Positions 7,867 through 60,612 of a stretch of DNA of 64,000 bases are shown piece by piece (positions within the stretch are counted from its first letter, which is position 1; the number at the start of each line of letters is the position of its first letter). A model generated the notes under the pieces. That model had not been told where the DNA came from. It did no database searches and saw nothing but the letters and a program-made list of their open reading frames with translations. Location: the NCBI GenBank assembly GCA_021513695.1, contig CP084166.1, positions 1,600,001 through 1,664,000 on the forward strand, read 5' to 3'. The position numbers and the translations under genes are program-made. This DNA comes from Candidatus Heimdallarchaeum aukensis. Lineage in GTDB: Archaea; Asgardarchaeota; Heimdallarchaeia; Heimdallarchaeales; Heimdallarchaeaceae.

Positions 7867-8247
7867 ATGTCAATAAGTTTACCACCAGAAAAGAAAAAAG
7901 AATTAATTAAAATATTAAAACAAATTTCACAAGGTTGTGAATTGGAAGCTTTAGCAGTTGTAACAGATGAGGGAATTAAAGTAGCTTTTTTTGCCGAGAA
8001 AAGTGCAGACCCTGATTTACTCAGCGCTGTAAGCTCGGCTGTTCTTTCCACCGGAGAGATGGTTACAAAACAGCTTTCTCACGGTTTTTTGGAACAAGTT
8101 TTAATCCGCGGTGCTAAAGGATTTACTATCTTATCTAATTTAGATCACTATCTTTTAATTGGAGCTTCTAAGGATTTACACAGCGTTGGTTTAGCTATAC
8201 AAGTAATAAGAAGGCATAGCCCCACAATTGCAGAATTGTTAAACTAA
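7867..8247 (+). CDS. Roadblock/LC7 (MglB-like) domain protein
   Basis: This 126-aa protein aligns by eye with the MglB/Roadblock pattern (ALAVVTDEGIKVAFFAE...LLSAVSSAVLSTGEMV...QVLIRGAKGFTILSNLDHYLLIGASKDLHSVGLA). Confidence 0.65.
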   Translation: MSISLPPEKKKELIKILKQISQGCELEALAVVTDEGIKVAFFAEKSADPDLLSAVSSAVLSTGEMVTKQLSHGFLEQVLIRGAKGFTILSNLDHYLLIGASKDLHSVGLAIQVIRRHSPTIAELLN

Positions 8248-8289: not shown

Positions 8290-9291
8290 TTAATAAAAGA
8301 GGAAACTCTTCTCTATTTCCTCTTGGCTAAAGCCAGCATTAATTCCAACAATTATTCTAATAAGATCAGAGATTTCTGCGTATTTCATTTCAAAAAAGGC
8401 AATCAATATTTTAAGATCAGTTGAAGATTTTTGACGAAATATTTTTTTCCATTTTTTGATTTGGAAACGCTCAACAGCAAATTCTATATCATGTAGAGGA
8501 ATATCATCTTTTCCCATGTAGTCAGCGAAGATTCTTTTGTATATTCCAAAATTGTACATGCTTAGGACTTCAGGAATGGAATTTGATTCTAATGCTTTTG
8601 CAATAAATGTTGTTGGTTTAATATAACGATAGGGAGCAATCCCAAGATTAATACATCTACACACCCAAATTATGTTCTTTAAGTTAACGTAGACATCAAA
8701 CTCACGAGAAATTACAGGGAGAATATAATATTCAAATTGATCTATTGCTGCGTCAACTGGTACAAAACGTCCTGTTTTCTGAAATTCAGAATAGCCTTGT
8801 TCTAATAATTGTTTGAAAGTCTGAATTTTTTCTGACTTAATGATATCAGCAATTGATGAGGAGGAAGAAAGAACTTTTTCATAATATTCATAACTGTATC
8901 TTCCAACTGGAGAAATTCTTTCTATTATTTCTTCATGAGGTTGCTTCATAAACAGTCCACGAAGAATATATCGGATATTCTCTGCATGAAATCGTTGGGA
9001 ATGAAGATCAATTATCTTTTTTGCTCTACTTGATCCCTGTTTATAAAAAGTGCTCACAGTTTGAGCAAAATGGTTCTTTAATTGTTTTGCAACTTCTGGC
9101 ATCTCTGTAACAAAATTAATATCTTGAACAATTGGACCATATTGCGTTTGCCGAAAAGCAGCTTGTAGTTCTTTAAGATTAGAAGAGGATAGAAGAAAAT
9201 TTATCTGACTTCGACTAAGTACTTTGCCTATTATTCCATGAGCTCTTCCATATAAATATCCATCTCCTGAGAACATTTCATTCACCAGCAA
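8290..9291 (-). CDS. atpC: A/V-type ATPase subunit C (homologue of eukaryotic V0 d)
   Basis: It lies immediately downstream of subunit I with a 14-nt overlap. The N-terminal pattern YLYGRAHGIIGKVLSRSQINFLL resembles the Y-x-N/R-A-R-V-R start of subunit C/d. Size (333 aa) and helical pattern fit. Confidence 0.55.
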   Translation of the reverse strand: MLVNEMFSGDGYLYGRAHGIIGKVLSRSQINFLLSSSNLKELQAAFRQTQYGPIVQDINFVTEMPEVAKQLKNHFAQTVSTFYKQGSSRAKKIIDLHSQRFHAENIRYILRGLFMKQPHEEIIERISPVGRYSYEYYEKVLSSSSSIADIIKSEKIQTFKQLLEQGYSEFQKTGRFVPVDAAIDQFEYYILPVISREFDVYVNLKNIIWVCRCINLGIAPYRYIKPTTFIAKALESNSIPEVLSMYNFGIYKRIFADYMGKDDIPLHDIEFAVERFQIKKWKKIFRQKSSTDLKILIAFFEMKYAEISDLIRIIVGINAGFSQEEIEKSFLFY

Positions 9292-12200
9292 TAGTTGTGT
9301 ATTGAATAAATTTGGTTTTCTCTAGTAATGGAGTATATTGGACACCTTCCCCTTTGTAGAACTTGGAGAAAAATTCTACCCAATGCAACCTCAGTGTCTG
9401 TAAGAATGAGAACATTCCTTCAATAGGTACAATCACAACAAGTCCCCAAACAATGCCAACAATCCAATAAATCCAAGAGGTAGCTAAAGCAGAGACGTTA
9501 TGGGTATCAACACCAGCTAAAATATATGGAAGACCACTCAAAATTGCATGGACTAGTAACATAGCTAAGATACGGCTAAAGGATAGTGTGTTAGAGAATA
9601 GAGCAATAAGATGATCTATAGCTTCCATAATCCCCTCTGTTCCTTCATGGAGATATTCGAATAGGAAAACTAGAGGAATTGAAACTAAGGCAATAATTGT
9701 AAATATTGTAGAATAGGGTTTTGGAATACTAGGAAGTGCATTTCCACCGATAAGTCGTGAAGTAGCACCAGCACCCATTAAATTATACAATACTGCAAAA
9801 AGTCCTACGTAAAAAATGGAAAGTATAATTGGAGAAATCCATGAAGCTACACCGTGACCGTATTTTTTGTTTTGTATAAATCTTAACCAGATCCCAAGTT
9901 GTATAATTACAAAACCAATAGAAATGGAAAACAATAAGAACAATGGTACTTCTTTTGTAGGCTCAATCAAAGGCAACCATTCAATATGCAAAACGTTTTC
10001 ATAAATATCAGGTAGAAATACTTCATCACCTAGAAGTGCTCCAAATAGGAAACCAAAGATAATTGAAGAAAAACCAGAAAGAGCAAGTAACTCAGAACCT
10101 TTATACAGAAATCCAGACATTGATTCATCAGGTTCAATATTCTTTTTGTTTTTCTTATAAGTTAGAAACAATCCAATCAAGAAGAGAAGTATTCCATGTC
10201 CCACATCAGCGAACATTATACCAAATATCAAGGGAAAAGTAAATTGTATAATTTTGAAGGGGTCTACTTCATGAGTTGAAGGGATACCCATTCCATCAAC
10301 TATTCCTCGAAAAACTTTAGTAACCTTATTCCCATGTTTTGTCATTGAAGGATTCGTTAATGGTACTTTTTGTTTTTCAGACATAGTTATTGGAAAATCC
10401 AATTTTTCGGTTTCTTTCTTTAAGTCTTCAACCCTATCTTTAGGAACCCAACCCCAAATTGTTGTAGTGGTTTCATCAGTTTTACATTTTTCTTCTGTTT
10501 CCAACCTTTTAATTTCTGTTTCTATTAACTCTTCTAGTGCGAAGATTTTGTCTTCTACTTTCTCCCTAATTTCATCCAATTCATGTTCTTTATGTTCTAT
10601 TTCAGTTTGAAGATTCGTGAGCTGACTTTCAATAGATTCTGAAGATATCATGCTATAGTCAATAGATAACAGCTCAAAGGAATATTCTTCTAGAACTTGT
10701 TGTATAGACTTCTTATAATCTATTAGAGACAATATGTAGACAAAGACTGTGTCACTTTTTTCTGGTTGCTCAACCTCAATGAAAATTAATTGCCCATCAG
10801 AAACTTCATTTAGGAAAAACTTTACAGCCTTAACATTCTTTTTTGGGATATTCCCCAAAAAGGTACAAGTTTCAAAATCTGGATCATCCAAGTATGGTTT
10901 AACATCAGAGCTTAAATAGGAATAAATAGGGATATATGCTTCTAATTCTGTTTTCTTCGCTTTTAATTCTTTAAGTTCGGAACTAAGATTTTCTATTTTT
11001 TCTCCATAATCTGCAATAAATTGCTCAACAAAAGATATAGCTTCATCATAGTTATCTTTTACAGCAATCTTAGAATCAGATATTGCTGGAGGAATAGATA
11101 ATCCAAGGGCTTGTTTGTATCTGCTAATTTTGGAAGATAGTAAAGTAAAATTCTGTCTTTTTTGTTTTATGTCGTTTAAAATATCTTCTGACTGTCTTCC
11201 TATCTTTTCTTGATGAAGGATACCAGTGTTATGAATAAAGGAGATTAACTTACGTGTGTGCTCCTTTGGGACTTCCATTTTAACAAACTCTACATCCTTC
11301 GGAAATAAAGCTCCTCCCTTACTGTCACCTAAATGATGATAAGGAGGAATTTCTTTTTCAATTGTTTTTTCTTCTTTCAAAGTCAAAGAACCACGATCCT
11401 TGGAAATTTTTTTAGATTTTTTATATTTCAGAGGAACATCCCTCAATTGAGTGAGTTTAACAGGAAAAGGAAGCTCTTTGAGTTCCTTTTCGAGATTAAG
11501 ATAATCATTAGGTTTAATCCAACCCCAAAGGGTGAAATTAGTTTGAGTTGTTCGACCCTGTTCTAGAATATCAAATAACTCAAGCATGAGATTAATAAAA
11601 GTGAGAAAATGCAAAAGAGTTTCACGATGTTCATCACGCAATTCTGAAATTTGAGATAAAATTTCATCGTGCTTTTCGTGCAGAAAATCATGTACATTAG
11701 CTACTGTAAGCTTGCTAGTTTCTTCATCACTGAACATATCGGCAAAAACAGACAGTTCAAAATCTATTGAAGAAAAATAGAAATTTTCTAGAATAGTCAA
11801 AACTTCATCTTGATATTCCTGGGGGGTGAGAATAAAAACCAAACGAAAATCAGGGTTAGATGATTCAATACTCCAGAAGTAATAAAGACCTTTAGTTATC
11901 TCATCAATATAAAAGGAGATAACTTTCTTATACGAATGATGGATTTCTCCAACGATAGAAAAGGTGGAAGGCCCAGAAGAAAGTAAATCTAAAGGGATAT
12001 CACCAGTCTCAAACTTATGCCGAAAATAATGAAGTTTGTCGGCAATTAGATGCTTCTTTGTTAAAGAATGATTTTCTTCAAAAAGAGAGATAAGAGAAGT
12101 TTCATGTGTATCTAAGAAAGATTTTAGTTCGGAAAGAAATCTAGAAGCATCAAAAACATCAGAGTAGTTTTTTTCTGAATATGAATAAACATCAGAAAGA

Positions 12201-12406
12201 TCTAGACCTAGTTCTTGTGATATGGTAGTAAAACGCTTTAACAAATCAGAAAAAAGCTGGCGATTATCTTCAATTTTAGCCAATTCTGAAGGAGATTGAG
12301 TATCAATTTGAACAAAATCAAAACAATCTAAATAATGTAATTTGGATACAAGAGGAAGGGAGTCGGAGGGTGACACCTGAACCTTTGAAAGTACTCTTTT
12401 TGCCAT
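9278..12406 (-). CDS. atpI: A/V-type ATPase subunit I (a), unusually long with an internally duplicated cytoplasmic N-terminal domain
   Basis: The C-terminal membrane domain carries the conserved-arginine helix SFSRILAMLLVHAILSG (cf. R-L-W-A-L-S-L-A-H-A-Q-L-S), and the FPLIFGIMFADVGHG motif is present. Two copies of a coiled-coil/GW(I/V)(K/P) module (TLWGWIKPNDY around aa 292 and TIWGWVPKDRV around aa 643) give 1042 aa versus the usual 650-700. Confidence 0.8.
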   Translation of the reverse strand: MAKRVLSKVQVSPSDSLPLVSKLHYLDCFDFVQIDTQSPSELAKIEDNRQLFSDLLKRFTTISQELGLDLSDVYSYSEKNYSDVFDASRFLSELKSFLDTHETSLISLFEENHSLTKKHLIADKLHYFRHKFETGDIPLDLLSSGPSTFSIVGEIHHSYKKVISFYIDEITKGLYYFWSIESSNPDFRLVFILTPQEYQDEVLTILENFYFSSIDFELSVFADMFSDEETSKLTVANVHDFLHEKHDEILSQISELRDEHRETLLHFLTFINLMLELFDILEQGRTTQTNFTLWGWIKPNDYLNLEKELKELPFPVKLTQLRDVPLKYKKSKKISKDRGSLTLKEEKTIEKEIPPYHHLGDSKGGALFPKDVEFVKMEVPKEHTRKLISFIHNTGILHQEKIGRQSEDILNDIKQKRQNFTLLSSKISRYKQALGLSIPPAISDSKIAVKDNYDEAISFVEQFIADYGEKIENLSSELKELKAKKTELEAYIPIYSYLSSDVKPYLDDPDFETCTFLGNIPKKNVKAVKFFLNEVSDGQLIFIEVEQPEKSDTVFVYILSLIDYKKSIQQVLEEYSFELLSIDYSMISSESIESQLTNLQTEIEHKEHELDEIREKVEDKIFALEELIETEIKRLETEEKCKTDETTTTIWGWVPKDRVEDLKKETEKLDFPITMSEKQKVPLTNPSMTKHGNKVTKVFRGIVDGMGIPSTHEVDPFKIIQFTFPLIFGIMFADVGHGILLFLIGLFLTYKKNKKNIEPDESMSGFLYKGSELLALSGFSSIIFGFLFGALLGDEVFLPDIYENVLHIEWLPLIEPTKEVPLFLLFSISIGFVIIQLGIWLRFIQNKKYGHGVASWISPIILSIFYVGLFAVLYNLMGAGATSRLIGGNALPSIPKPYSTIFTIIALVSIPLVFLFEYLHEGTEGIMEAIDHLIALFSNTLSFSRILAMLLVHAILSGLPYILAGVDTHNVSALATSWIYWIVGIVWGLVVIVPIEGMFSFLQTLRLHWVEFFSKFYKGEGVQYTPLLEKTKFIQYTTIAGE

Positions 12407-12867
12407 TAATTTCTCACCAGAATAGTAAGCAAGAACAATTTTAAAATCTTCCTACTGAACATAAGACAAAAAAAATAGTGAGCTTGTTACTAAAAAATAT
12501 GAGAAAATATTGGAGAAGAAACAAGAAAGAGAAGAATGAACTACAAAAACAAAGAAGAGAGTTAAAAAATTAAAAAAGAGATTTGAAAAAAGAATTGTTT
12601 GGTTTAAAAACCAGTGAAATTTTTCAATTTTATTCGAGAATAATTATTTTCAAATGGAAAAACAGTAAAAAAGAGAAACAATAACAGATATGCAAATAAT
12701 CAAAAAACAAAAGATGGAAGAAGGATTCATTTAAAAAGAATGACCTAAGAATAACAAAAAGTTTAATAACTTTCTAAAGGTAACTAAGGTCAGTAACCAA
12801 ATAGGTTAGATTTGTAAAAACAAGTCGAAAAAAATTTGAAAAAAACCAAACAATAGGTGAAAAATTT

Positions 12868-14004
12868 ATGGAAGAAATAGTATCTGATAAACCGTTGGTA
12901 ATAGACAACGGAACAGGATTCACAAAAAATGGATTCGCAGGAGAAGATCAACCAAGAAGTGTGTTCCCAACGCTAATAGGTTATCCAAAATACCAAATAA
13001 TAATGACTGATGTTGAACATTACGTAAGAGAATACTATATAGGAGAAGAAGCACTAAACTTGAGAGGAGTGCTCAAACTAGTATACCCAATAGAACATGG
13101 TCAAATAGGTGACTGGGACGCCATGGAAAGAATCTGGCATTACACCTTCTATAACGACCTTAGAGTTAATCCTAACGAGCATCCTATTTTGCTCACCGAA
13201 CCTCCTCTTAACAAGAATGTCAACAAGGAAAAGATGGCCGAATTAATGTTTGATACCTTTAATGTTCCTGCTATGTATATTAGCATGCAAGCTATTCTTT
13301 CGCTTTATGCTTCTGGTCGTACTACAGGTATTGTAGTCGACAGTGGTGATGGTGTTACACACATCGTTCCTGTTTACGAAGGTTTTGCAATTAGTCATGC
13401 TATTCGCAGAGCTGATATTGGTGGTCGTGATATTACTGACTATCTACGTCGTCTATTAAGACAAAGAGGATATTCCTTAACCAGCAGTGCAGAACGAGAA
13501 ATTGTTCGTGACATTAAGGAACGTCTTTGTTACGTAGCTTTAGATCCTGAAAAAGAACTCAAACTTGCTGAGAAAGTTTCTGGTATGGAAAAGACTTACA
13601 CCTTGCCAGATGGTGAAACTCTAAGCATTGGCGCTGAGCGCTTTATGGCTCCTGAATTGTTCTTCAATCCTGGTGCCATCGGTTCTGAAGAACTTCCTTT
13701 GGATGAACAGATCTATCAAGCTATCACTGATTGTGATGTCGATCTTCGTAGAGATCTTTATTCCAACATTGTTCTTTCTGGTGGATCCACCATGTTCCCA
13801 GGTTTGAAGGAGAGATTACACAAGGAACTTACTGAACTAGTCCCCGAAACTATGGAGGTTAAGATTATCGCTCCACCAGAACGTCGTTACAGTGTTTGGA
13901 TAGGAGGAAGCATCCTCAGTAGTCTTAAGACCTTTACCAAACTTTGGGTGACTAAGAAAGAGTATAAAGAAACTGGTCCTACCGCAGTTTATCGTTGTAT
14001 CTAA
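12868..14004 (+). CDS. actin (eukaryote-like, Asgard 'Lokiactin'-type)
   Basis: The protein aligns along its whole length to eukaryotic actin. Matching blocks include [84 protein letters not shown] and [19 protein letters not shown]. Confidence 0.95.
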
Positions 14005-14029
14005 TTTAACTTGATTGAAATTTATTTAA

Positions 14030-14085
14030 TTCAATCTTTTTTCTTCATTTTTGTGTTTTTCTGTTTTTCTTTTTTCCTATTGGTA
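14030..14085 (+). terminator. T-rich tract downstream of actin (probable archaeal oligo-T terminator)
   Basis: Multiple T5-T7 runs lie within 80 nt after the actin stop. Confidence 0.4.
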
Positions 14086-14185
14086 AAGTCTTTTCTTCAA
14101 TATTCTCAAATTTTTTTCATTAATTTTTATCGGGTTGAGAAAACTTTATTTTATTCTTTGAGTATACATTCTTTTAGGGGGTATA

Positions 14186-15124
14186 TTGTTGGACGTCAAT
14201 TTACTCAGATCTTATTTATCTGAGCCTAACTATCGCGCTGTTTTATCGGAGATTATACATTCCCATCGTAGCCGTTCTATTGACGAACTTTCTTCTCTTT
14301 TTCCTTCTTTAACTAGTAACTACTCTTTAACTAAAATTTTGAAGAAGTTTGTAGATATAGGTATTATTAAAAGCAAGAAAATTTCCCTTGGTTCTCAAGA
14401 GCGTGAATTTTATTTTCCCAATCGGGAACTTTTACGAAGTAATTTTTATCAAGATTTGCTTTTAGAATATGAAGATCTAAATTATCCAGCCAAACTAGAT
14501 CTGGAATTTACTTATCTTTGGGAAGATTGGCCTCAGTGCCTTGTTGATAATGGTTCTTTAACCCTGTATATTGTCACCAGTACTTATTTACCTGAAAATG
14601 TAGATATTTCACACCTAACAAAGCTTCTTACTGTTTGGGCTTTAAAATATGCAAAACTATCTATTGAAAACATTCATATTTCTAATATTGTTGATATTAA
14701 AGCAACACCAGTTAAAACTAATAATCTAATAGTTATTGGTTCTGGAGAAGTCAACAAGGTTACTGCCGATATTTTATCTCTTTATGGTGACTCTTTACCT
14801 ATTCGTTTTCAATCTAAATCAATATATAGTTCCTTGACTTCCAAAAATTATTCTTCTACAAAAGGTTCTATTGTAGGTTTACTTCCAAATCCCTGGAATC
14901 CTAGCAAAATTGCTTTAATCTGTTCTAGTATGAGTTATTTTGGAACTAATATTTCACTTAAAGCTTTAATTGATGATCTTGATTCAATTATCCATCAAGA
15001 ACCCAGAATTTTATCTAATCACTCTGTTTATTCTGAAATCCCCATTCGTGTTCTTGCATCAGAAGAAAACAACAAGAATAAAGAAAAACTTGAAGGACTG
15101 AAATCTTACACTTTCAAAGAATGA
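14186..15124 (+). CDS. hypothetical protein, possible N-terminal winged-helix; TTG start
   Basis: This is a 312-aa ORF with no internal Met for about 250 residues. The N-terminal region (SIDELSSLFPSLTSNYSLTKILKKFVDIGIIKSKK) looks wHTH-like. No recognisable catalytic motifs. Confidence 0.35.
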   Translation: MLDVNLLRSYLSEPNYRAVLSEIIHSHRSRSIDELSSLFPSLTSNYSLTKILKKFVDIGIIKSKKISLGSQEREFYFPNRELLRSNFYQDLLLEYEDLNYPAKLDLEFTYLWEDWPQCLVDNGSLTLYIVTSTYLPENVDISHLTKLLTVWALKYAKLSIENIHISNIVDIKATPVKTNNLIVIGSGEVNKVTADILSLYGDSLPIRFQSKSIYSSLTSKNYSSTKGSIVGLLPNPWNPSKIALICSSMSYFGTNISLKALIDDLDSIIHQEPRILSNHSVYSEIPIRVLASEENNKNKEKLEGLKSYTFKE

Positions 15125-21139: not shown

Positions 21140-22558
21140 TTGTTAGTATTATCAAGTTGTCAATATTGTGGTAATAAAGCTCAATATTATTGTACAAATT
21201 GTGGAAAATTACTATGTTCAGAACATGCGACTGAAGCCCACACAGTCTACTATTGTAAAAACTGTGATTTAGAAGTGTATGAAAAGCAATGTCACAAGTG
21301 TGGAAACAAAACAGAATTTTCTAGAAATGATAATGTTCTCCTGTGCGAATGGTGCAAAACTCCTACAGTAGTAGATGGCTATGCCTATCATCAACAATTA
21401 CCTGAAAAAATATTTAGTTCAATACTTAGAATAAATAAAAAGATAGCTGATTTGCTTTACCTAACAGATAGATATCACAAATTAGTTGACGAAATTCTAA
21501 AAGTGCGATATGCTAAAATAAAATTATTTCCAGAAATTGAAGATGATCTCTCCATTCTAAGAACAAAAATAGACAACTTAATCAAAAAACTAAGAATCAT
21601 CAGTGATAGCTTATTTTTGAAAATAAACAAAAAGTTACAATCATTAAACTACCTTAGATCCCCAAACTTAAACAACCTTGAACCAGCTGAAGAATTAATC
21701 AATTATTTAGACAAAAACTATGAATCTTTAGGATATAGCTTACATTTAAAAATTGAGCAAATAGAAGAATACTTTGCCTCCATTGGCAAAAAAGTTGATT
21801 TTCTGAATTATCAATATACTCTTTTGAAGATAATATACCGACTTATTCCTGAAGTTGAAGGAGAGGAATTAATTGCTATCATTCCTAGAATGTGGATAAA
21901 AAAAAGTTATAAGCTCCCTAAGCGTCATGTTTTTGTTTTAACAAACAAGAACATCTACCTCTTAAGAGAAAAAGGCCTATTTCGTACAATGTTAAAATTA
22001 AAAGAGAAAATCGATCTCTCTAATGTAAGATTAGTTTCAGAATCCCAAACATTATTGAAAGGAAAGGTTGTAAAAATTTCAACATTACTTTCACAATATT
22101 CATTGTTTGGTAGAGATATAGCTATTTCAGAGTTATCAAAATATTTCAGTATCTATTATGAATACTTCAAATATTCTACAAGTGACCTCACAGTAATTAA
22201 TGAATTTAAATATTATAATTTATCTGTAAAAGATTTACGAGAAGCAATAAATAAATACCTCAACAACCTCCGTGTTTCTCTTCTTAAAAAGAGAGAAATA
22301 AAAAGAGAAATAATGTATAAAAATAGTTTAGTAGCAAGACGACAGCAGATATTACAACGATTAGCAAATATAAGACGTAAAATCCAAGAAATAACGCAAT
22401 CTAGAACAGGAAGATATCAAAGTCCTAAAGTTTTCAACAACCTGTTACAGAGACTTATGGAAGAGCAATCTCGTTTAGAAAAAGAAATAAGAATAAATGA
22501 CGCAAAAATCAGAGAGATAGATGAATTGTGGGGTGTTTTTTATGATCAAGTTTCTTAA
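21140..22558 (+). CDS. hypothetical protein with N-terminal B-box-like zinc fingers, a bPH-like segment and a C-terminal coiled coil
   Basis: The first finger reads CQYCGNKAQYYCTNCGKLLCSEHATEAH (C-x2-C-x7-C-x2-C-x4-C-x2-H-x4-H), and a second CxxC...CxxC...CxxC cluster follows. The mid-region HVFVLTNKNIYLLREKGLF...KIDLSNVRLVSESQTLLKGKV resembles bacterial PH (bPH_2) domains. The start is TTG. Confidence 0.4.
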   Translation: MLVLSSCQYCGNKAQYYCTNCGKLLCSEHATEAHTVYYCKNCDLEVYEKQCHKCGNKTEFSRNDNVLLCEWCKTPTVVDGYAYHQQLPEKIFSSILRINKKIADLLYLTDRYHKLVDEILKVRYAKIKLFPEIEDDLSILRTKIDNLIKKLRIISDSLFLKINKKLQSLNYLRSPNLNNLEPAEELINYLDKNYESLGYSLHLKIEQIEEYFASIGKKVDFLNYQYTLLKIIYRLIPEVEGEELIAIIPRMWIKKSYKLPKRHVFVLTNKNIYLLREKGLFRTMLKLKEKIDLSNVRLVSESQTLLKGKVVKISTLLSQYSLFGRDIAISELSKYFSIYYEYFKYSTSDLTVINEFKYYNLSVKDLREAINKYLNNLRVSLLKKREIKREIMYKNSLVARRQQILQRLANIRRKIQEITQSRTGRYQSPKVFNNLLQRLMEEQSRLEKEIRINDAKIREIDELWGVFYDQVS

Positions 22559-30246: not shown

Positions 30247-31545
30247 TCACGAAGGAGAGTTTAGATTAGGCGAACCGGTCATAGAGCCAGAGGAGAGAGT
30301 TGATAAACCCTCGACCACGGAAACTGGAAAAAAGAACTTTTTCCGCTCACGTGGGACAGGAAAATAAGAAAAAAAGGAAGAAGAGAGAGGGAGAGGAAGA
30401 GAACCAAAAAAGAGAAGAGAAAGGTTGCGAGAGGCGTTGCGGTCAGAGTGAACTTCAAAACCACAAGAAACGCAACGAAAAAGGTCACGAGTGACACGGG
30501 AGGAAGGAGAAACGTGACCGCAACGAGAGCAACGTTGACTGGTATAATGAGGGGGGACAGGAAGAACAGGAATATGCTTTTCTTCAGCAAGAGAGGTCAA
30601 GAAAGAGAGGAAAAAGCGATAAGACCAGCGGTTGAGAGAGCGACGAATACGTTCTCTTCCTCTAAAATTCTTTTTAGTCCATTTTTTTCTTATTTTACTA
30701 ATTTCTTCAATTACTATCGCAGAGCGTGTAACTACTGCTAAATCTACAATCTCGTGAGCTATTTGCTCACATCGGGTTTTGTTATAATTTTTTTCTTTAT
30801 TTTTCAATCTTTTTAACGCACGCCGTGCTTTTTCACTTCCTTTATCAGCATACGATTGTAGCTTTCTTCTTCTTTCATTAAACTTATGTTGTTTCCAGGC
30901 AAGATCTTTTCCGAGGTAACGTTCAATTAGAGTAAAAGAGGGATGATTAAGTGTTATTGCGGCAGCTATCTTTCTACCTACGTCTACTCCTATCGTTCCT
31001 TCTACTTGTTGAGGAGGAAAAAGGTTAAGTTCTTTACGTAAAATTATGTGCTCTACCCACTTTCTTTCCCGTTTAAAGACTTTACAACTATGCTCTTTCC
31101 ATCCTTCTCTGCGGTATGCTTCTACTCTTCTCCATCCTCCATCTAGTTTGATAGGTATAGCTATCCTTTCTTTCATCGGAGAAATAGCTAAAACAGGGTT
31201 CCCTCTCTCTGTTTCTTTTATTCCTCCACTCCTGGGAAAGTTGAACTCCAACGGTAAATTATCGAACTTTTTCACTTTCCTTGCCGCATAAACTCTTCTC
31301 TGTACCGCTTCTTGCACTTGACTGTGTAACTTCACATATTTGAACCTCTTATATACTAAATGATGGAACTCTTTTCCTGATTTCGCTTTTTCCTTGAACA
31401 CTATTATTTTATTTGCCATCTCTGTCGCTTTTTTCTGTGCTCTCTGCATGTATGCTCTTTTTCTTCTACTCGGGAGAATATTCACTTTTACTGTTTTTTC
31501 TTTCCACTTCCTTTTCTTTCCTTTTCTTCTCCCTTTCGTTTTCAT
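30247..31545 (-). CDS. tnpB: TnpB-like RuvC/zinc-finger nuclease
   Basis: RuvC-I reads IGVDVGRK and RuvC-II reads AIVIEEISK. The zinc finger reads CSRCGHVS...FRCVSCGFEVHSDRNASRNL. The K/R-rich N-terminus and low-complexity C-terminal tail probably reflect read-through of the low-complexity ends. Confidence 0.8.
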   Translation of the reverse strand: MKTKGRRKGKKRKWKEKTVKVNILPSRRKRAYMQRAQKKATEMANKIIVFKEKAKSGKEFHHLVYKRFKYVKLHSQVQEAVQRRVYAARKVKKFDNLPLEFNFPRSGGIKETERGNPVLAISPMKERIAIPIKLDGGWRRVEAYRREGWKEHSCKVFKRERKWVEHIILRKELNLFPPQQVEGTIGVDVGRKIAAAITLNHPSFTLIERYLGKDLAWKQHKFNERRRKLQSYADKGSEKARRALKRLKNKEKNYNKTRCEQIAHEIVDLAVVTRSAIVIEEISKIRKKWTKKNFRGRERIRRSLNRWSYRFFLSFLTSLAEEKHIPVLPVPPHYTSQRCSRCGHVSPSSRVTRDLFRCVSCGFEVHSDRNASRNLSLLFFGSLPLPLSSSFFSYFPVPRERKKFFFPVSVVEGLSTLSSGSMTGSPNLNSPS

Positions 31546-35327: not shown

Positions 35328-35666
35328 CTATATTTTTAGTCGTTCTTGAATTTCTTTTAGAGAGTTCAATATATTTTTCTCTCTTTTTTGAAGAGAAGAC
35401 AGATGTATCTCTATTCTTTCAAGTTCCTCTGTTAACGATTTTTTAACTGTTTCAACGTCTGATTGAAAAAGTATTGGACCAGTGGAGCGATAGATTACAG
35501 TTGACTCATCTAATTCATCAACTACTTTCAAGGCATTAGAACTATCATGTTTCATAATTTCATATTGCTGTATGTTTAGTCTAATTGAATCTAGACTTTG
35601 TCTGAGTTCATAATATCGTTGAACATCTTTTTCTTGTTCTGGAGTAAGTTTTCCTGGACTTGACAT
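35328..35666 (-). CDS. pfdB: prefoldin beta subunit
   Basis: 112 aa with coiled coil, a central beta-hairpin (VIYRSTGPILFQ) and coiled coil. Size and heptad pattern fit prefoldin beta. Confidence 0.6.
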   Translation of the reverse strand: MSSPGKLTPEQEKDVQRYYELRQSLDSIRLNIQQYEIMKHDSSNALKVVDELDESTVIYRSTGPILFQSDVETVKKSLTEELERIEIHLSSLQKREKNILNSLKEIQERLKI

Positions 35667-49996: not shown

Positions 49997-52237
<2,241 letters not shown>

Positions 52238-53031: not shown

Positions 53032-54384
53032 ATGACAAAAAGTTTCATTCAATTACACATTGGCATAGATGACACTGATTCACTATCTGGAAATTGTACC
53101 ACTTATGTAGCTGCAAGAATCATAGAATATCTCTCTAATTTTGTCAAGTTTAGCGATTATCCTAGGTTAATCAGAAATAACCCCAATATTCCATGGAAAA
53201 CTAGAGGAAATGGGGCAATTGCAATTTCATTTAAGGTAGAAGAAAAATATATTGACGAAATAATTTCTTTTATTTTTAACTACATAAAAGATAATCATGA
53301 ACATGATATTAATACAAATCCAGGTTGTGTGATCATTAAAGGAGAAGTTCCTCTTCTTGTCAGAGAATTTTCTAAAAGAGCTTTAATCTCTAATATCAAA
53401 ATTAATGAAGCAAAGGAACTGATTAAGGATCTAAATTTAAAATCTTTTCACATTGGTAATGGGCGAGGTTTAATTGGTGCTTTAGCTGCATTAGGCAATG
53501 AGTTAAAACCTTCAGAAGAAGATTTCACGTATGAATTACTTACTTACAGACGAAAAGAGAACATAGGAAAAAAACGATTAGTGTCTGAAGAAAGTGTTCA
53601 TTTAATGGATAAAGAACTGTATCCATTTGTTTTCAACAATATTGATGAGGAAAAAAATAAATCGATCATTGCTCCTGCAGGAAAAGACCCAGTATTATAT
53701 GGTATCAGAGGAGAAAATGCTGAAATATTATTGAAAGCATTAAAAATTGTTAAAACTTATGAAGAAATAGAAAGATACTGTATTTTTAGGACAAATCAAG
53801 GAACAGATCAACATTTTAAATTTGCAAGTTCAAAAATTGAAAAGTATTCAGTATTCAAAGGCGAAATAGAAGTCCAAACAAAGCCTACAACTATCTTAGG
53901 AGGACATGTTTTTTTTAAAGGAAAAATCCTTGATAGCGGTAAAATCGTAGATGTTGCTGCATTTGAACCAACAAAGAAGTTTAGACTAGTAGTTAAACAA
54001 TTACTACCAAATGACAGAATAATTGCTTTTGGTGGAGTTCAAGTTTTTCAGGAGAATGTTTTTACAATTCAACTAGAAAAGATGATAGTTACGCATGTTG
54101 CAGAACAATACAAAGAGCTTTCTCCACTCTGTCCTCAATGTGGAAAGAGAATGACTTCTGCTGGTTTTTCAAAAGGCCATAAATGTAAAAAATGTGGTTA
54201 CAAAGATAGAAATAGCAAAAAAATTAGAGAAACTGTTTACAGAGAATTGAAAAAAGGACTATATATTCCTCCAGCTGGTTCTCAGCGGCATTTAGTTAAA
54301 CCCCATAGAAGGTATTCTATAGAAAACTCAAGAGAGAATAAAATTGTTCTTATTAATAATTGGTGGAGAAAAAACGAGAATTAG
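53032..54384 (+). CDS. tiaS: tRNA(Ile2) 2-agmatinylcytidine synthetase
   Basis: LHIGIDDTDSLSGNCTTYVA is the TiaS kinase-domain signature. YPRLIRNNPNIPWKTRGNGAIA is present. The C-terminal zinc ribbon reads CPQCGKR...CKKCG. Confidence 0.8.
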   Translation: MTKSFIQLHIGIDDTDSLSGNCTTYVAARIIEYLSNFVKFSDYPRLIRNNPNIPWKTRGNGAIAISFKVEEKYIDEIISFIFNYIKDNHEHDINTNPGCVIIKGEVPLLVREFSKRALISNIKINEAKELIKDLNLKSFHIGNGRGLIGALAALGNELKPSEEDFTYELLTYRRKENIGKKRLVSEESVHLMDKELYPFVFNNIDEEKNKSIIAPAGKDPVLYGIRGENAEILLKALKIVKTYEEIERYCIFRTNQGTDQHFKFASSKIEKYSVFKGEIEVQTKPTTILGGHVFFKGKILDSGKIVDVAAFEPTKKFRLVVKQLLPNDRIIAFGGVQVFQENVFTIQLEKMIVTHVAEQYKELSPLCPQCGKRMTSAGFSKGHKCKKCGYKDRNSKKIRETVYRELKKGLYIPPAGSQRHLVKPHRRYSIENSRENKIVLINNWWRKNEN

Positions 54385-56441: not shown

Positions 56442-56612
56442 CTAAAGATCTCTTGCACTTACAGTTTTACGTCCGTTGGCTTTAGCTCTTTCAGCTGCTT
56501 TCTTGACAATTCCTTCAACAAGTTTGTCAAGAGCATCAAAGAGGTCTCCACCAACTTTGTAATCACCAAGTTCCTTGATGAGTTCTCTTACTTTACTTTT
56601 TACGACAATCAT
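56442..56612 (-). CDS. short histone-fold protein (56 aa; archaeal histone-like with truncated alpha-3) - not in the supplied ORF track
   Basis: The reverse-strand translation is MIVVKSKVRELIKELGDYKVGGDLFDALDKLVEGIVKKAAERAKANGRKTVSARDL. ...ERAKANGRKTVSARDL aligns with the archaeal histone L2-alpha-3 block ...KHAGRKTIKAEDI. The alpha-1/loop/alpha-2 pattern is preserved, but alpha-3 is cut after DL. Confidence 0.45.
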   Translation of the reverse strand: MIVVKSKVRELIKELGDYKVGGDLFDALDKLVEGIVKKAAERAKANGRKTVSARDL

Positions 56613-59686: not shown

Positions 59687-59878
59687 ATGATTATCCCCGT
59701 ACGTTGTTGGACATGTGGTTCTTTAATTGCAGATAAGTGGGAAGAGTTTCACGAAAGAGTTGAAAATAACGAGAATCCAGAAAAAGTATTAGATGACTTG
59801 AAAGTCAATCGTTGGTGTTGTCGAAGAATGTTGATAGCACATATTGATCTCATTGATGAGATACTCCCATTCAGTTAG
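59687..59878 (+). CDS. rpoN: DNA-directed RNA polymerase subunit Rpo10 (N)
   Basis: [11 protein letters not shown]...RWCCRRML is the canonical Rpo10 Zn-binding pattern. Confidence 0.85.
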
Positions 59879-59949
59879 GAAGTTTATAACAAACAACAAA
59901 AAAAAGAACAAGAAACGAAACTTTTTATATAAAACTAAAAGAGAATGAA

Positions 59950-60612
59950 GTGATTAGGAAACGAGGAAGAAAAATGTCTGAAGAAACTAAAGATCCAATT
60001 GAAGAAGAACAAACACTTTTAGTTCCTAGAGATGAATATTTAGTTAGCGGAATTCATATTGGGACAAGTGTATGCACAAAATCAATGCAAAAATACATGT
60101 ATCGAGTTCGCACTGATGGTATTTTTGTTCTTAATGTAAATTTAACAGACGAACGTATACGTACTGCTGCTAAGTTTTTAGCTCGATTCGAGCCTTCTCA
60201 AGTAGCAGTTTTTGCAACAAGACAATATGCATCTGTACCATCTACAAAAATGGCTCGTTATTGTGGTTTTAAAGTATTTCCAGGTCGTTTTATCCCAGGA
60301 ACTTTAACCAATCCTACATACTCAGGATATATTGAGCCAGATATAATAATTCTAACTGACCCACGAGCAGACAAACAAGCTCTAACAGAAGCTTCTTCAC
60401 GTGGTATTCCTATTATTGCATTATGCGATACAGATAATATCACAACAAATGTCGATTTTGTTATTCCTGTAAATAATAAAGGAAGAAAAAGTCTTGCGTT
60501 AGTATATTACCTACTAACAAGACAGGTATTGATCGAGCGTGGAGAGTTAGGCGAAAACGAAGATTTGCCAGAAACTGTAGAAGACTTTTCTTTCAAACTA
60601 ATTAGAGATTAA
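59950..60612 (+). CDS. rps2: 30S ribosomal protein uS2 (likely start MSEETKD at 59974)
   Basis: LVSGIHIGT, VFATRQYA and IIILTDPRAD...ASSRGIPIIALCDTDN are uS2/SA-family blocks. Confidence 0.85.
   Translation: MIRKRGRKMSEETKDPIEEEQTLLVPRDEYLVSGIHIGTSVCTKSMQKYMYRVRTDGIFVLNVNLTDERIRTAAKFLARFEPSQVAVFATRQYASVPSTKMARYCGFKVFPGRFIPGTLTNPTYSGYIEPDIIILTDPRADKQALTEASSRGIPIIALCDTDNITTNVDFVIPVNNKGRKSLALVYYLLTRQVLIERGELGENEDLPETVEDFSFKLIRD

Follow-up and report, generated by a model that had tools for sequence, protein, structure and literature searches.

The locus considered here lies in a stretch of 64,000 nucleotides (nt) of contig CP084166.1 of Candidatus Heimdallarchaeum aukensis (positions 1,600,001 to 1,664,000 of the forward strand; hereafter the window, in whose coordinates all positions are given), and it raises two questions: whether the open reading frame (ORF) at 12868–14004 encodes an actin of eukaryotic type, as an earlier note on this DNA had proposed, and whether the long A-rich region that precedes it serves as a leader of the actin messenger RNA (mRNA). 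Taken jointly, our results make it highly probable that the ORF is the single-copy housekeeping actin of Ca. Heimdallarchaeum, of the Lokiactin type, with a transcription factor B recognition element (BRE)/TATA promoter and a leader of ~75 nt, and that the remaining upstream sequence is a lineage-specific A-rich spacer. The gene is already known as the catalogued actin of the genus. New is the observation that its A-rich tract is carried into the coding sequence by synonymous codons, with similar switches in other Heimdallarchaeia actins.

12868–14004, + strand: actin (Lokiactin-type conventional actin), 378 amino acids (aa) plus stop codon; Pfam Actin profile, structure matches and orthologue identity.

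The ORF begins with ATG and runs for 378 codons without an intron. Its product matches the Pfam Actin profile (PF00022) with E=3.3e-132 and 441.4 bits, well above the gathering threshold of 27, and residues 8–376 span profile positions 5–407 of 410, whereas the MreB_Mbl model reached 20.7 bits, under its own cut-off of 27. Among solved structures in the PDB, the top match was 'HC1 actin' (9wc4_A, 3e-197), with which the window actin shares 269 of 375 residues without gaps over residues 2–376 (72% identity), followed by more than 55 eukaryotic conventional actins at ~1e-159 covering residues 9–376; no actin-related protein (Arp) occurred among the 60 best structure matches. Aligned with human beta-actin (UniProt P60709), the protein is identical at 219 of 367 positions (60% identity, 80% positives) with a single 2-residue gap in the D-loop, a full-length match without large indels at the level of ~55–60% or more to a eukaryotic conventional actin. 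The earlier claim of a full-length actin of eukaryote-level conservation is borne out by these data, and the outcome it had named as contrary, top matches to MreB, ParM or crenactin at under 30% identity, is not what we observed. Its further claim that the nucleotide-binding loops, the hydrophobic plug and the C-terminal motif all align also held: the phosphate-1 (DxGxGxxK), phosphate-2 (DSGDGVTH) and adenosine (SGGSTM) motifs occur in register, as do Q137 and YPIEHG, and the C-terminal third is conserved relative to human beta-actin. The plug segment, however, aligns without gaps but is divergent, with only ~4 of 13 residues identical. By these alignments, the product of 12868–14004 is judged to be a full-length eukaryote-like actin, distinct from a distant protein of the MreB, ParM or crenactin type.

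A search among 5.8 billion proteins returned as closest single-domain relative the 'actin family protein [Candidatus Heimdallarchaeum endolithica]' of PR6 (99% identity), followed by proteins from Heimdallarchaeaceae (97%), AB_125-type Heimdallarchaeaceae (92–93%) and other Asgard classes (74–85%), so that the nearest relatives are Lokiactin-type actins of Asgard genomes; the eukaryotic entries that ranked high were tandem fusions of 530–650 aa. Could the ORF nevertheless stem from eukaryotic contamination or from a recent transfer out of a eukaryote into a prokaryote, or encode an Arp instead of an Asgard conventional actin? Eukaryotic actins do score at ~1e-160, and some close relatives are named 'actin, cytoplasmic 2' or 'bacterial actin-related protein' in databases, but hundreds of Asgard orthologues at 77–99% identity score above every single-domain eukaryotic actin, and the best PDB matches are conventional actins rather than Arps. 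The gene is moreover intronless, has a Shine-Dalgarno-led start, sits among archaeal neighbours (A-ATPase subunits I and C, aminoacyl-tRNA synthetases, TiaS, aIF5B) and lies in a locus collinear with a closed Asgard chromosome, all of which makes a foreign or Arp identity hardly credible. In the earlier note, similarity of this degree was said to be known only from Asgard-type archaea and to mark the lineage. The mark stands, given the Heimdallarchaeia best relatives and the collinearity with PR6, although 'only' is slightly too strong: a few bacteria carry horizontally acquired eukaryote-like actins, and it is the genomic context that settles the Asgard origin here.

Because 2.9–23.5 kb of the window is collinear, at 91–93% DNA identity, with the closed PR6 chromosome (Ca. 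H. endolithica, CP084167.1), and because the exact window actin protein occurs on 9 metagenome contigs with the same neighbours, we assign the source to a Heimdallarchaeum species distinct from, and sister to, H. endolithica PR6. The sister species H. aukensis has been described at 88% average nucleotide identity (Wu et al., PMC8813620). For comparisons within the genus we used PR6, loci L081–L084 (of the same species as the window), and L085/L086 and L087 (97% actin identity).

By homology, the protein would bind and hydrolyse ATP through its conserved phosphate-1, phosphate-2 and adenosine motifs and would polymerise into double-stranded filaments resembling F-actin, a scaffold for the cell body and its protrusions, as experiments have demonstrated for Lokiactin and HC1 actin. 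Every Asgard lineage has Lokiactin; among the actin homologues of L. ossiferum it has the highest transcript level, and it assembles into F-actin-like filaments (PMC9834061). Actin filaments have been seen in cells of HC1, a member of the Hodarchaeales (bioRxiv 10.1101/2025.02.26.640444). The regulators profilin and gelsolin would be encoded elsewhere in the genome. The eukaryotic signature proteins (ESPs) of Heimdallarchaeum genomes include actin, profilin and gelsolin (PMC8813620).

We then considered the region upstream of the gene, in which the following features can be distinguished.

9278–12406, − strand: atpI, A/V-ATPase subunit I, 1042 aa, with a duplicated N-terminal domain (PF01496, 5e-48).
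12419–12742, no strand assigned: distal A-rich spacer, single-copy, low-complexity and hypervariable (alignment, strain divergence).
12743–12867, + strand: conserved promoter-proximal block with a putative leader of ~75 nt (alignment and blastn against genus relatives).
12755–12769, + strand: BRE/TATA-like element CAAAAAG-TTTAATAA, the inferred actin promoter, invariant in all 7 genus sequences.
12794–12826, + strand: two adjacent small predicted hairpins or palindromes, TAACC-N5-GGTTA and GATTTGT-N4-ACAAGTC (consensus fold prediction).
12856–12860, + strand: Shine-Dalgarno sequence GGTGA, separated from the ATG by 7 nt and unchanged across the genus alignment.

The intergenic region 12407–12867 is, as the earlier note had described, long, rich in A and purines and shared with the divergent atpI: it measures 461 nt with 52.1% A, 14.8% G and 66.8% purine, and the most A-rich 461-nt stretch of the window's + strand falls within it. 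No other intergenic region of the window comes near it in strand asymmetry (A 0.52 versus T 0.24); the other divergent regions are roughly symmetric. The description of this region as unusually long applies within the window, where it is the fourth longest of 49 intergenic regions, but not among Asgard actin loci generally, since 220–800 nt of non-coding sequence precedes the actin orthologue in most of those examined (a range that may be an upper bound, as only ORFs of at least 100 aa were counted). The divergent atpI/actin layout is genus-specific; AB_125-type relatives have the order atpI(+)-AC39(+)-actin(+) with a spacer of ~226 nt.

Only the proximal ~125 nt of the 461-nt region could be aligned with the genus relatives L085–L087, by alignment and by blastn, and over 12743–12867 the window, L082 and PR6 share 98–99.5% identity. 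Conservation begins ~20 nt upstream of TTTAATAA and extends to the ATG, and the core A.ACTA.CAAAA...TTTAATA is also kept in AB_125-type Heimdallarchaeaceae loci. We infer that 12755–12769 is a BRE/TATA promoter, with a predicted transcription start site (TSS) near 12792 and a leader of ~75 nt. In the hairpins at 12794–12826, the stems either do not vary or differ on a single side (U-A to U-G), with no compensatory changes among sequences that are few and too similar for covariation, and we regard these elements as a putative RNA structure or DNA binding site. The same GGTGA at the same 7-nt spacing precedes atpI on the opposite strand (12418–12414). A scan with sigma-70 promoter and intrinsic-terminator models, which are unsuited to archaea, gave matches at chance level, and for TSS or leader maps in Asgard archaea there was nothing relevant in the literature searched.

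The distal part of the region behaves quite differently. Its ~330 nt cannot be aligned with L085 or L087, and the spacer is 3–5% diverged between the window and L082 while their flanking coding DNA is 99.5–100% identical. It is single-copy among all loci examined by blastn; its small ORFs are all at most 33 aa, low-complexity and not conserved; a repeat search around the actin gene found only low-complexity chance pairs; and no tRNA was found in the window. The atpI promoter must also lie within 12419–12742. These data bear on the suggestion that transcription of actin begins at a distal promoter near atpI, so that the mRNA would carry the whole A-rich region of 461 nt as a long regulatory 5' leader. 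The region is indeed long and A-skewed in the actin sense direction throughout, even beside atpI, and upstream starts exist in the family, in that AB_125-type relatives carry a second conserved TATA-containing block, GCTTATAAAAGC, ~50 nt above the proximal one. A regulatory leader would, however, be expected to keep some sequence or structure, and neither the unalignable distal ~330 nt nor their rapid divergence between strains with near-identical flanking genes fits this. Searches of Rfam gave no match to 12300–14300 up to E=1, and none across the whole window at gathering thresholds; with the distal 330 nt unconserved and the proximal hairpins free of covariation, nothing here points to a long structured leader or a riboswitch-like element. 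We consider a long leader, which the earlier note had raised as a possibility to be mapped, very unlikely.

Because conservation starts only ~125 nt before the ATG and the distal part is hypervariable, the upstream region probably consists of a short promoter and leader that are conserved, joined to a fast-evolving A-rich spacer. The spacer would date from the change that set the atpI-atpC pair divergent to actin in this genus, and its A-richness would be a compositional property, not a conserved sequence, one that extends through the first 88 codons of the gene. Two further observations concern the upstream sequence of relatives. Loci L002–L025 (AB_125-type) carry, ~125 nt upstream of actin in the AC39-actin spacer and ~50 nt above TTTAATA, a very strongly conserved block, GCTTATAAAAGCTACGATAGTGATAATG, that is absent from the window's genus and may serve as a further promoter or as a site to which a regulator binds. 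The window also lacks a segment of 22–23 nt, ACGATAGTTTAACAAAAAAAAAG, at 12431/12432 just upstream of atpI, which is kept in PR6 and in L081–L084; these last are otherwise up to 100% identical to the window, a strain-level indel or an assembly difference.

The A-richness of the upstream region does not end at the start codon, and two parts of the coding sequence can be separated by their codons.

12868–13131, + strand: 5' coding block, codons 1–88, with A-ending codons that continue the upstream A-rich tract (30-codon bins; change-point z=6.4 at codon 88).
13132–14001, + strand: coding body, codons 89–378, with a T/C-ending, expression-type codon bias (codon counts, z-scores).

From 12400 to ~13100 the AT skew remains at +0.35 to +0.40, and beyond that it is negative; the choice among synonymous codons carries the A-rich tract ~264 nt into the coding sequence. 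In 30-codon bins, the share of A at third codon positions (A3) is 0.50–0.63 in codons 1–88/90 compared to 0.07–0.40 in the remainder, and that of T (T3) is 0.10–0.27 (0.17 overall) in codons 1–90 compared to ~0.48 thereafter. Isoleucine is encoded by ATA at 8 of 8 positions in codons 1–88 and at 1 of 22 after (window, 37%); arginine by AGA at 4 of 4 in the 5' block and by CGT at 10 of 19 in the body (window, 15%); and glycine by GGA at 6 of 9 in the 5' block and by GGT at 14 of 19 in the body. Measured against window-wide synonymous usage, codons 2–88 are enriched in A3 and depleted in T3 (z=+3.9 and −4.8, P about 1e-4), and codons 89–378 show the reverse (z=−8.2 for A3 and +4.1 for T3). The codon bias of the body would fit a very highly expressed gene, and the window's genes for ribosomal protein S2 (rpS2; 59687–60612, + strand) and NDK lean to CGT, ATT, ATC and GGT in the same way, more weakly. 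The window also encodes, at 53032–54384 (+ strand), TiaS, the agmatidine synthase on which the reading of ATA codons depends.

Such switches recur in other actins. When 749 ORFs of the window and of 85 related loci were scanned for change points, the strongest switches from A3 to T3 came from the actin orthologues of L038, L035, the window, L043, L077, L041 and PR6, together with the window's two TnpB genes. The A-rich side is always 5' in the actin genes, with split points ranging from codon 62 to codon 337, and the actin of L038 has almost no third-position T over nearly its whole length (T3 ~0.01–0.05). Selection on the mRNA 5' region and recombination are the two live options for the codon switch.

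The first option treats the A-rich, T-poor sense tract from ~−460 to +264 as one selected feature of the actin gene, which could be an unstructured 5' part of a very abundant mRNA, a slow-codon ramp, or histone-excluding DNA over the promoter and early transcribed region. In its favour, the composition disregards the start codon, the excess of A and shortage of T in codons 2–88 go beyond window-wide synonymous usage, the strongest switches among the 749 ORFs are in actin orthologues of several lineages and always with an A-rich 5' end, and the distal spacer keeps its composition while its sequence changes. Recoding codons 2–88 in the dialect of the body also made predicted folding ~14 kcal/mol stronger (0 of 200 recodings as weak as native), but recoding with window-wide codons folded as weakly as native in 29% of trials, which gives no evidence for extra-low structure: the 5' block is less structured than the body dialect and not less than ordinary genome codon usage, and we set this folding test aside as non-discriminating. 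Upstream A content and 5' A3 excess are, moreover, uncorrelated across 71 loci (rho 0.17, P 0.16), the feature is missing in L085 and the AB_125 group, the split point is not fixed, and rpS2 in the window has no such block. That the tract is a single selected feature is thus, in our estimation, unlikely. The wider proposal sees in the tract, from the distal spacer to codon ~88, an expression element that is under selection at the level of composition and recurs at variable length across the actins of several Heimdallarchaeia lineages. It is a shade less probable still; if true, actin genes near the base of the eukaryotes would carry a previously undescribed synonymous-site code.

The second option is homologous recombination between diverged actin alleles, which would make the codon switch and a 5'-to-3' gradient of divergence the marks of a mosaic gene with nothing regulatory about them. 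Third-position divergence between the window and PR6 climbs along actin (0.044, 0.20, 0.26 and 0.40, compared to 0.06–0.26 in other genes), and at 59 of the 94 differences PR6 has A where the window has C, T or G. A block of low divergence from PR6 at ~10050–13050 spans atpI, the spacer and the 5' end of actin, and block boundaries differ among PR6, L087 and the window, a pattern that looks like a recombination mosaic. Directly 3' of the actin stop codon lie both an indel and the breakpoint of an inversion, and gene flow is a stated property of Heimdallarchaeum genomes (PMC8813620). On the other hand, no donor with a near-identical block was present among 90 loci, and the changes could not be polarised: with L085 and L087 as outgroups, synonymous sites are saturated and the two outgroups disagree at 49 of the 94 differences. 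Recombination alone also gives no account of why the A-rich block is always 5'. We regard recombination as a tentative explanation, possible but on the unlikely side.

The two TnpB/Cas12f-like (IS200/IS605 OrfB) genes that appeared in the same scan lie at 1174–2628 and 30247–31545, both on the − strand. In both, the 5' part is A-rich and rich in Arg and Lys, and the composition switches sharply towards the 3' end (in the second, at codon ~298 of 432), at the site where overlap with an omega-RNA would be expected, and their upstream regions are the window's other strongly purine-skewed stretches.

Beyond its stop codon, the actin gene is followed by one further feature of the locus.

14005–14185, + strand: T-rich 3' flank, 56% T, putative terminator and inversion breakpoint (composition, fold, synteny break).

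Termination of the actin transcript would occur in this flank, which contains a weak AT hairpin at 14013–14036 (−4.8 kcal/mol, no better than shuffled sequence) and then several runs of T5–T6, and which is a plausible archaeal terminator; PR6 has a further ~460 nt of T-rich sequence at this point. Throughout the Heimdallarchaeaceae the genes keep the order atpI-atpC-actin-prefoldin-beta, the AC39 gene upstream being atpC. In the 24 Heimdallarchaeaceae loci with enough sequence (L002–L020, L025, L029 and L085–L087), prefoldin-beta lies downstream of actin on the same strand, with a gap of 135–280 nt in 22 of them and of 838 nt in L018 and 1534 nt in L029. In the window, by contrast, prefoldin-beta is found at 35328–35666 (− strand), and the segment comprising prefoldin-beta, a 103-aa ORF, DHH and ABC is inverted at 35666–32530, beside Dak2. 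A single inversion of ~21.5 kb (14186–35666), common to the window and PR6, would explain both junctions, and it is because of this inversion that prefoldin-beta stands apart from actin in these two genomes. Eukaryotic actin is one of prefoldin's main clients; we found no mention of actin-prefoldin gene linkage in the literature searched.

The gene now adjacent to actin, a 312-aa ORF at 14186–15124 (+ strand), has no Pfam family and only 3 relatives among the 5.8 billion proteins, all from Heimdallarchaeaceae. Its low-confidence structure model (pLDDT 61) shows only a winged-helix-like N-terminus in recognisable form, with weak PadR/MarR matches, and an alpha/beta C-terminal part. In relatives, this ORF follows the genes for leucyl-tRNA synthetase and Dak2 and precedes those for FAA-hydrolase, MFS and threonyl-tRNA synthetase, and it is always beside the last three; we judge its adjacency to actin to be accidental, a product of the inversion. 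On the other side, atpI is 1042 aa long because its N-terminal cytoplasmic domain is duplicated (residues 8–326 match 376–683, blastp 7e-17). This long form is common to all Heimdallarchaeaceae loci examined, in which atpI orthologues adjoin actin. Within atpI, the segment 11468–12067 is hypervariable among strains that are almost identical.

Next to actin there is no gene for profilin or gelsolin, as had been noted earlier, and the observation extends across the window: no ORF of at least 100 aa in the 64 kb has a Pfam match to either, although Pfam profiles can overlook the profilins of Asgard archaea, and the intergenic ORFs include no plausible small candidate. The actin gene is accordingly not part of a regulator cluster with a profilin- or gelsolin-domain gene beside it.

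Several points weigh against the reading of the locus as a whole. TATA-like strings are common in DNA of 24% GC, and the TSS, leader length and terminator are predicted from sequence conservation. The placement of the protein in the conventional actin/Lokiactin clade instead of among the Arps draws on best-hit ranking and identity, and its filament formation and ATPase activity are predicted from homology. The case for a eukaryotic cytoskeleton older than the eukaryotes themselves is built in large part on Asgard actin, and the window gene adds nothing new there; the value of this check is mostly negative, in that a striking upstream region is no conserved long leader. Of interest are the abrupt switches from A-ending to T/C-ending codons in Heimdallarchaeia actins, stronger than in any neighbouring gene, and the prefoldin subunit gene directly after actin in the Heimdallarchaeaceae gene order, given the client relation of the two proteins in eukaryotes.

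Elsewhere in the window, we observed a Roadblock/LC7 gene, an ESP, at 7867–8247 (+ strand) and CDC48 at 50009–52237 (+ strand). A 472-aa protein encoded at 21140–22558 (+ strand) carries a zinc finger of the B-box type at its N-terminus; its match to the myosin TH1 tail domain falls below threshold (21 bits against a cut-off of 31) and may be due to chance. By eye, a 56-aa ORF at 56442–56612 (− strand) is a candidate for a histone-fold-like C-terminus, and a 63-aa ORF is a candidate RpoN-like protein.

Compared to known systems, the window actin is closest to the Asgard Lokiactin-type actins, sharing a full-length actin fold with HC1 actin (a Hodarchaeales isolate, PDB 9wc4), the Lokiactin of Ca. 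Lokiarchaeum ossiferum and the PR6 actin. It belongs to the same length class (376–379 aa), of which an Asgard genome has one conserved orthologue, and its D-loop is longer by 2 residues (PKYQ..M.DV.HYVREYY), as in HC1 actin. At the protein level, its differences from these actins are ordinary orthologue divergence; its oddities are those of the gene, namely the A-ending codon block 1–88 and the lost adjacency of actin and prefoldin. With eukaryotic conventional actin (human ACTB, yeast Act1, Acanthamoeba actin-1) it has 60% identity and 80% similarity over 367 residues, an identical phosphate-2 loop (DSGDGVTH), and conserved Q137, (S/T)TM and KIIAPPER(R/K). It differs from them in the 2-residue D-loop insertion, in a hydrophobic-plug segment that diverges from the eukaryotic FQPSFLGMESCGI, and in an N-terminus (MEEIVSDK) that lacks the acidic processed N-terminus of eukaryotic actin, and its gene, Shine-Dalgarno-led and intronless, is prokaryotic in form. 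With the Arps, crenactin, MreB, ParM and MamK, the window actin shares the ASKHA/actin fold and nucleotide-binding topology, but these proteins are far more distant, as the scores of 20.7 bits for MreB_Mbl and 441 bits for Actin illustrate.

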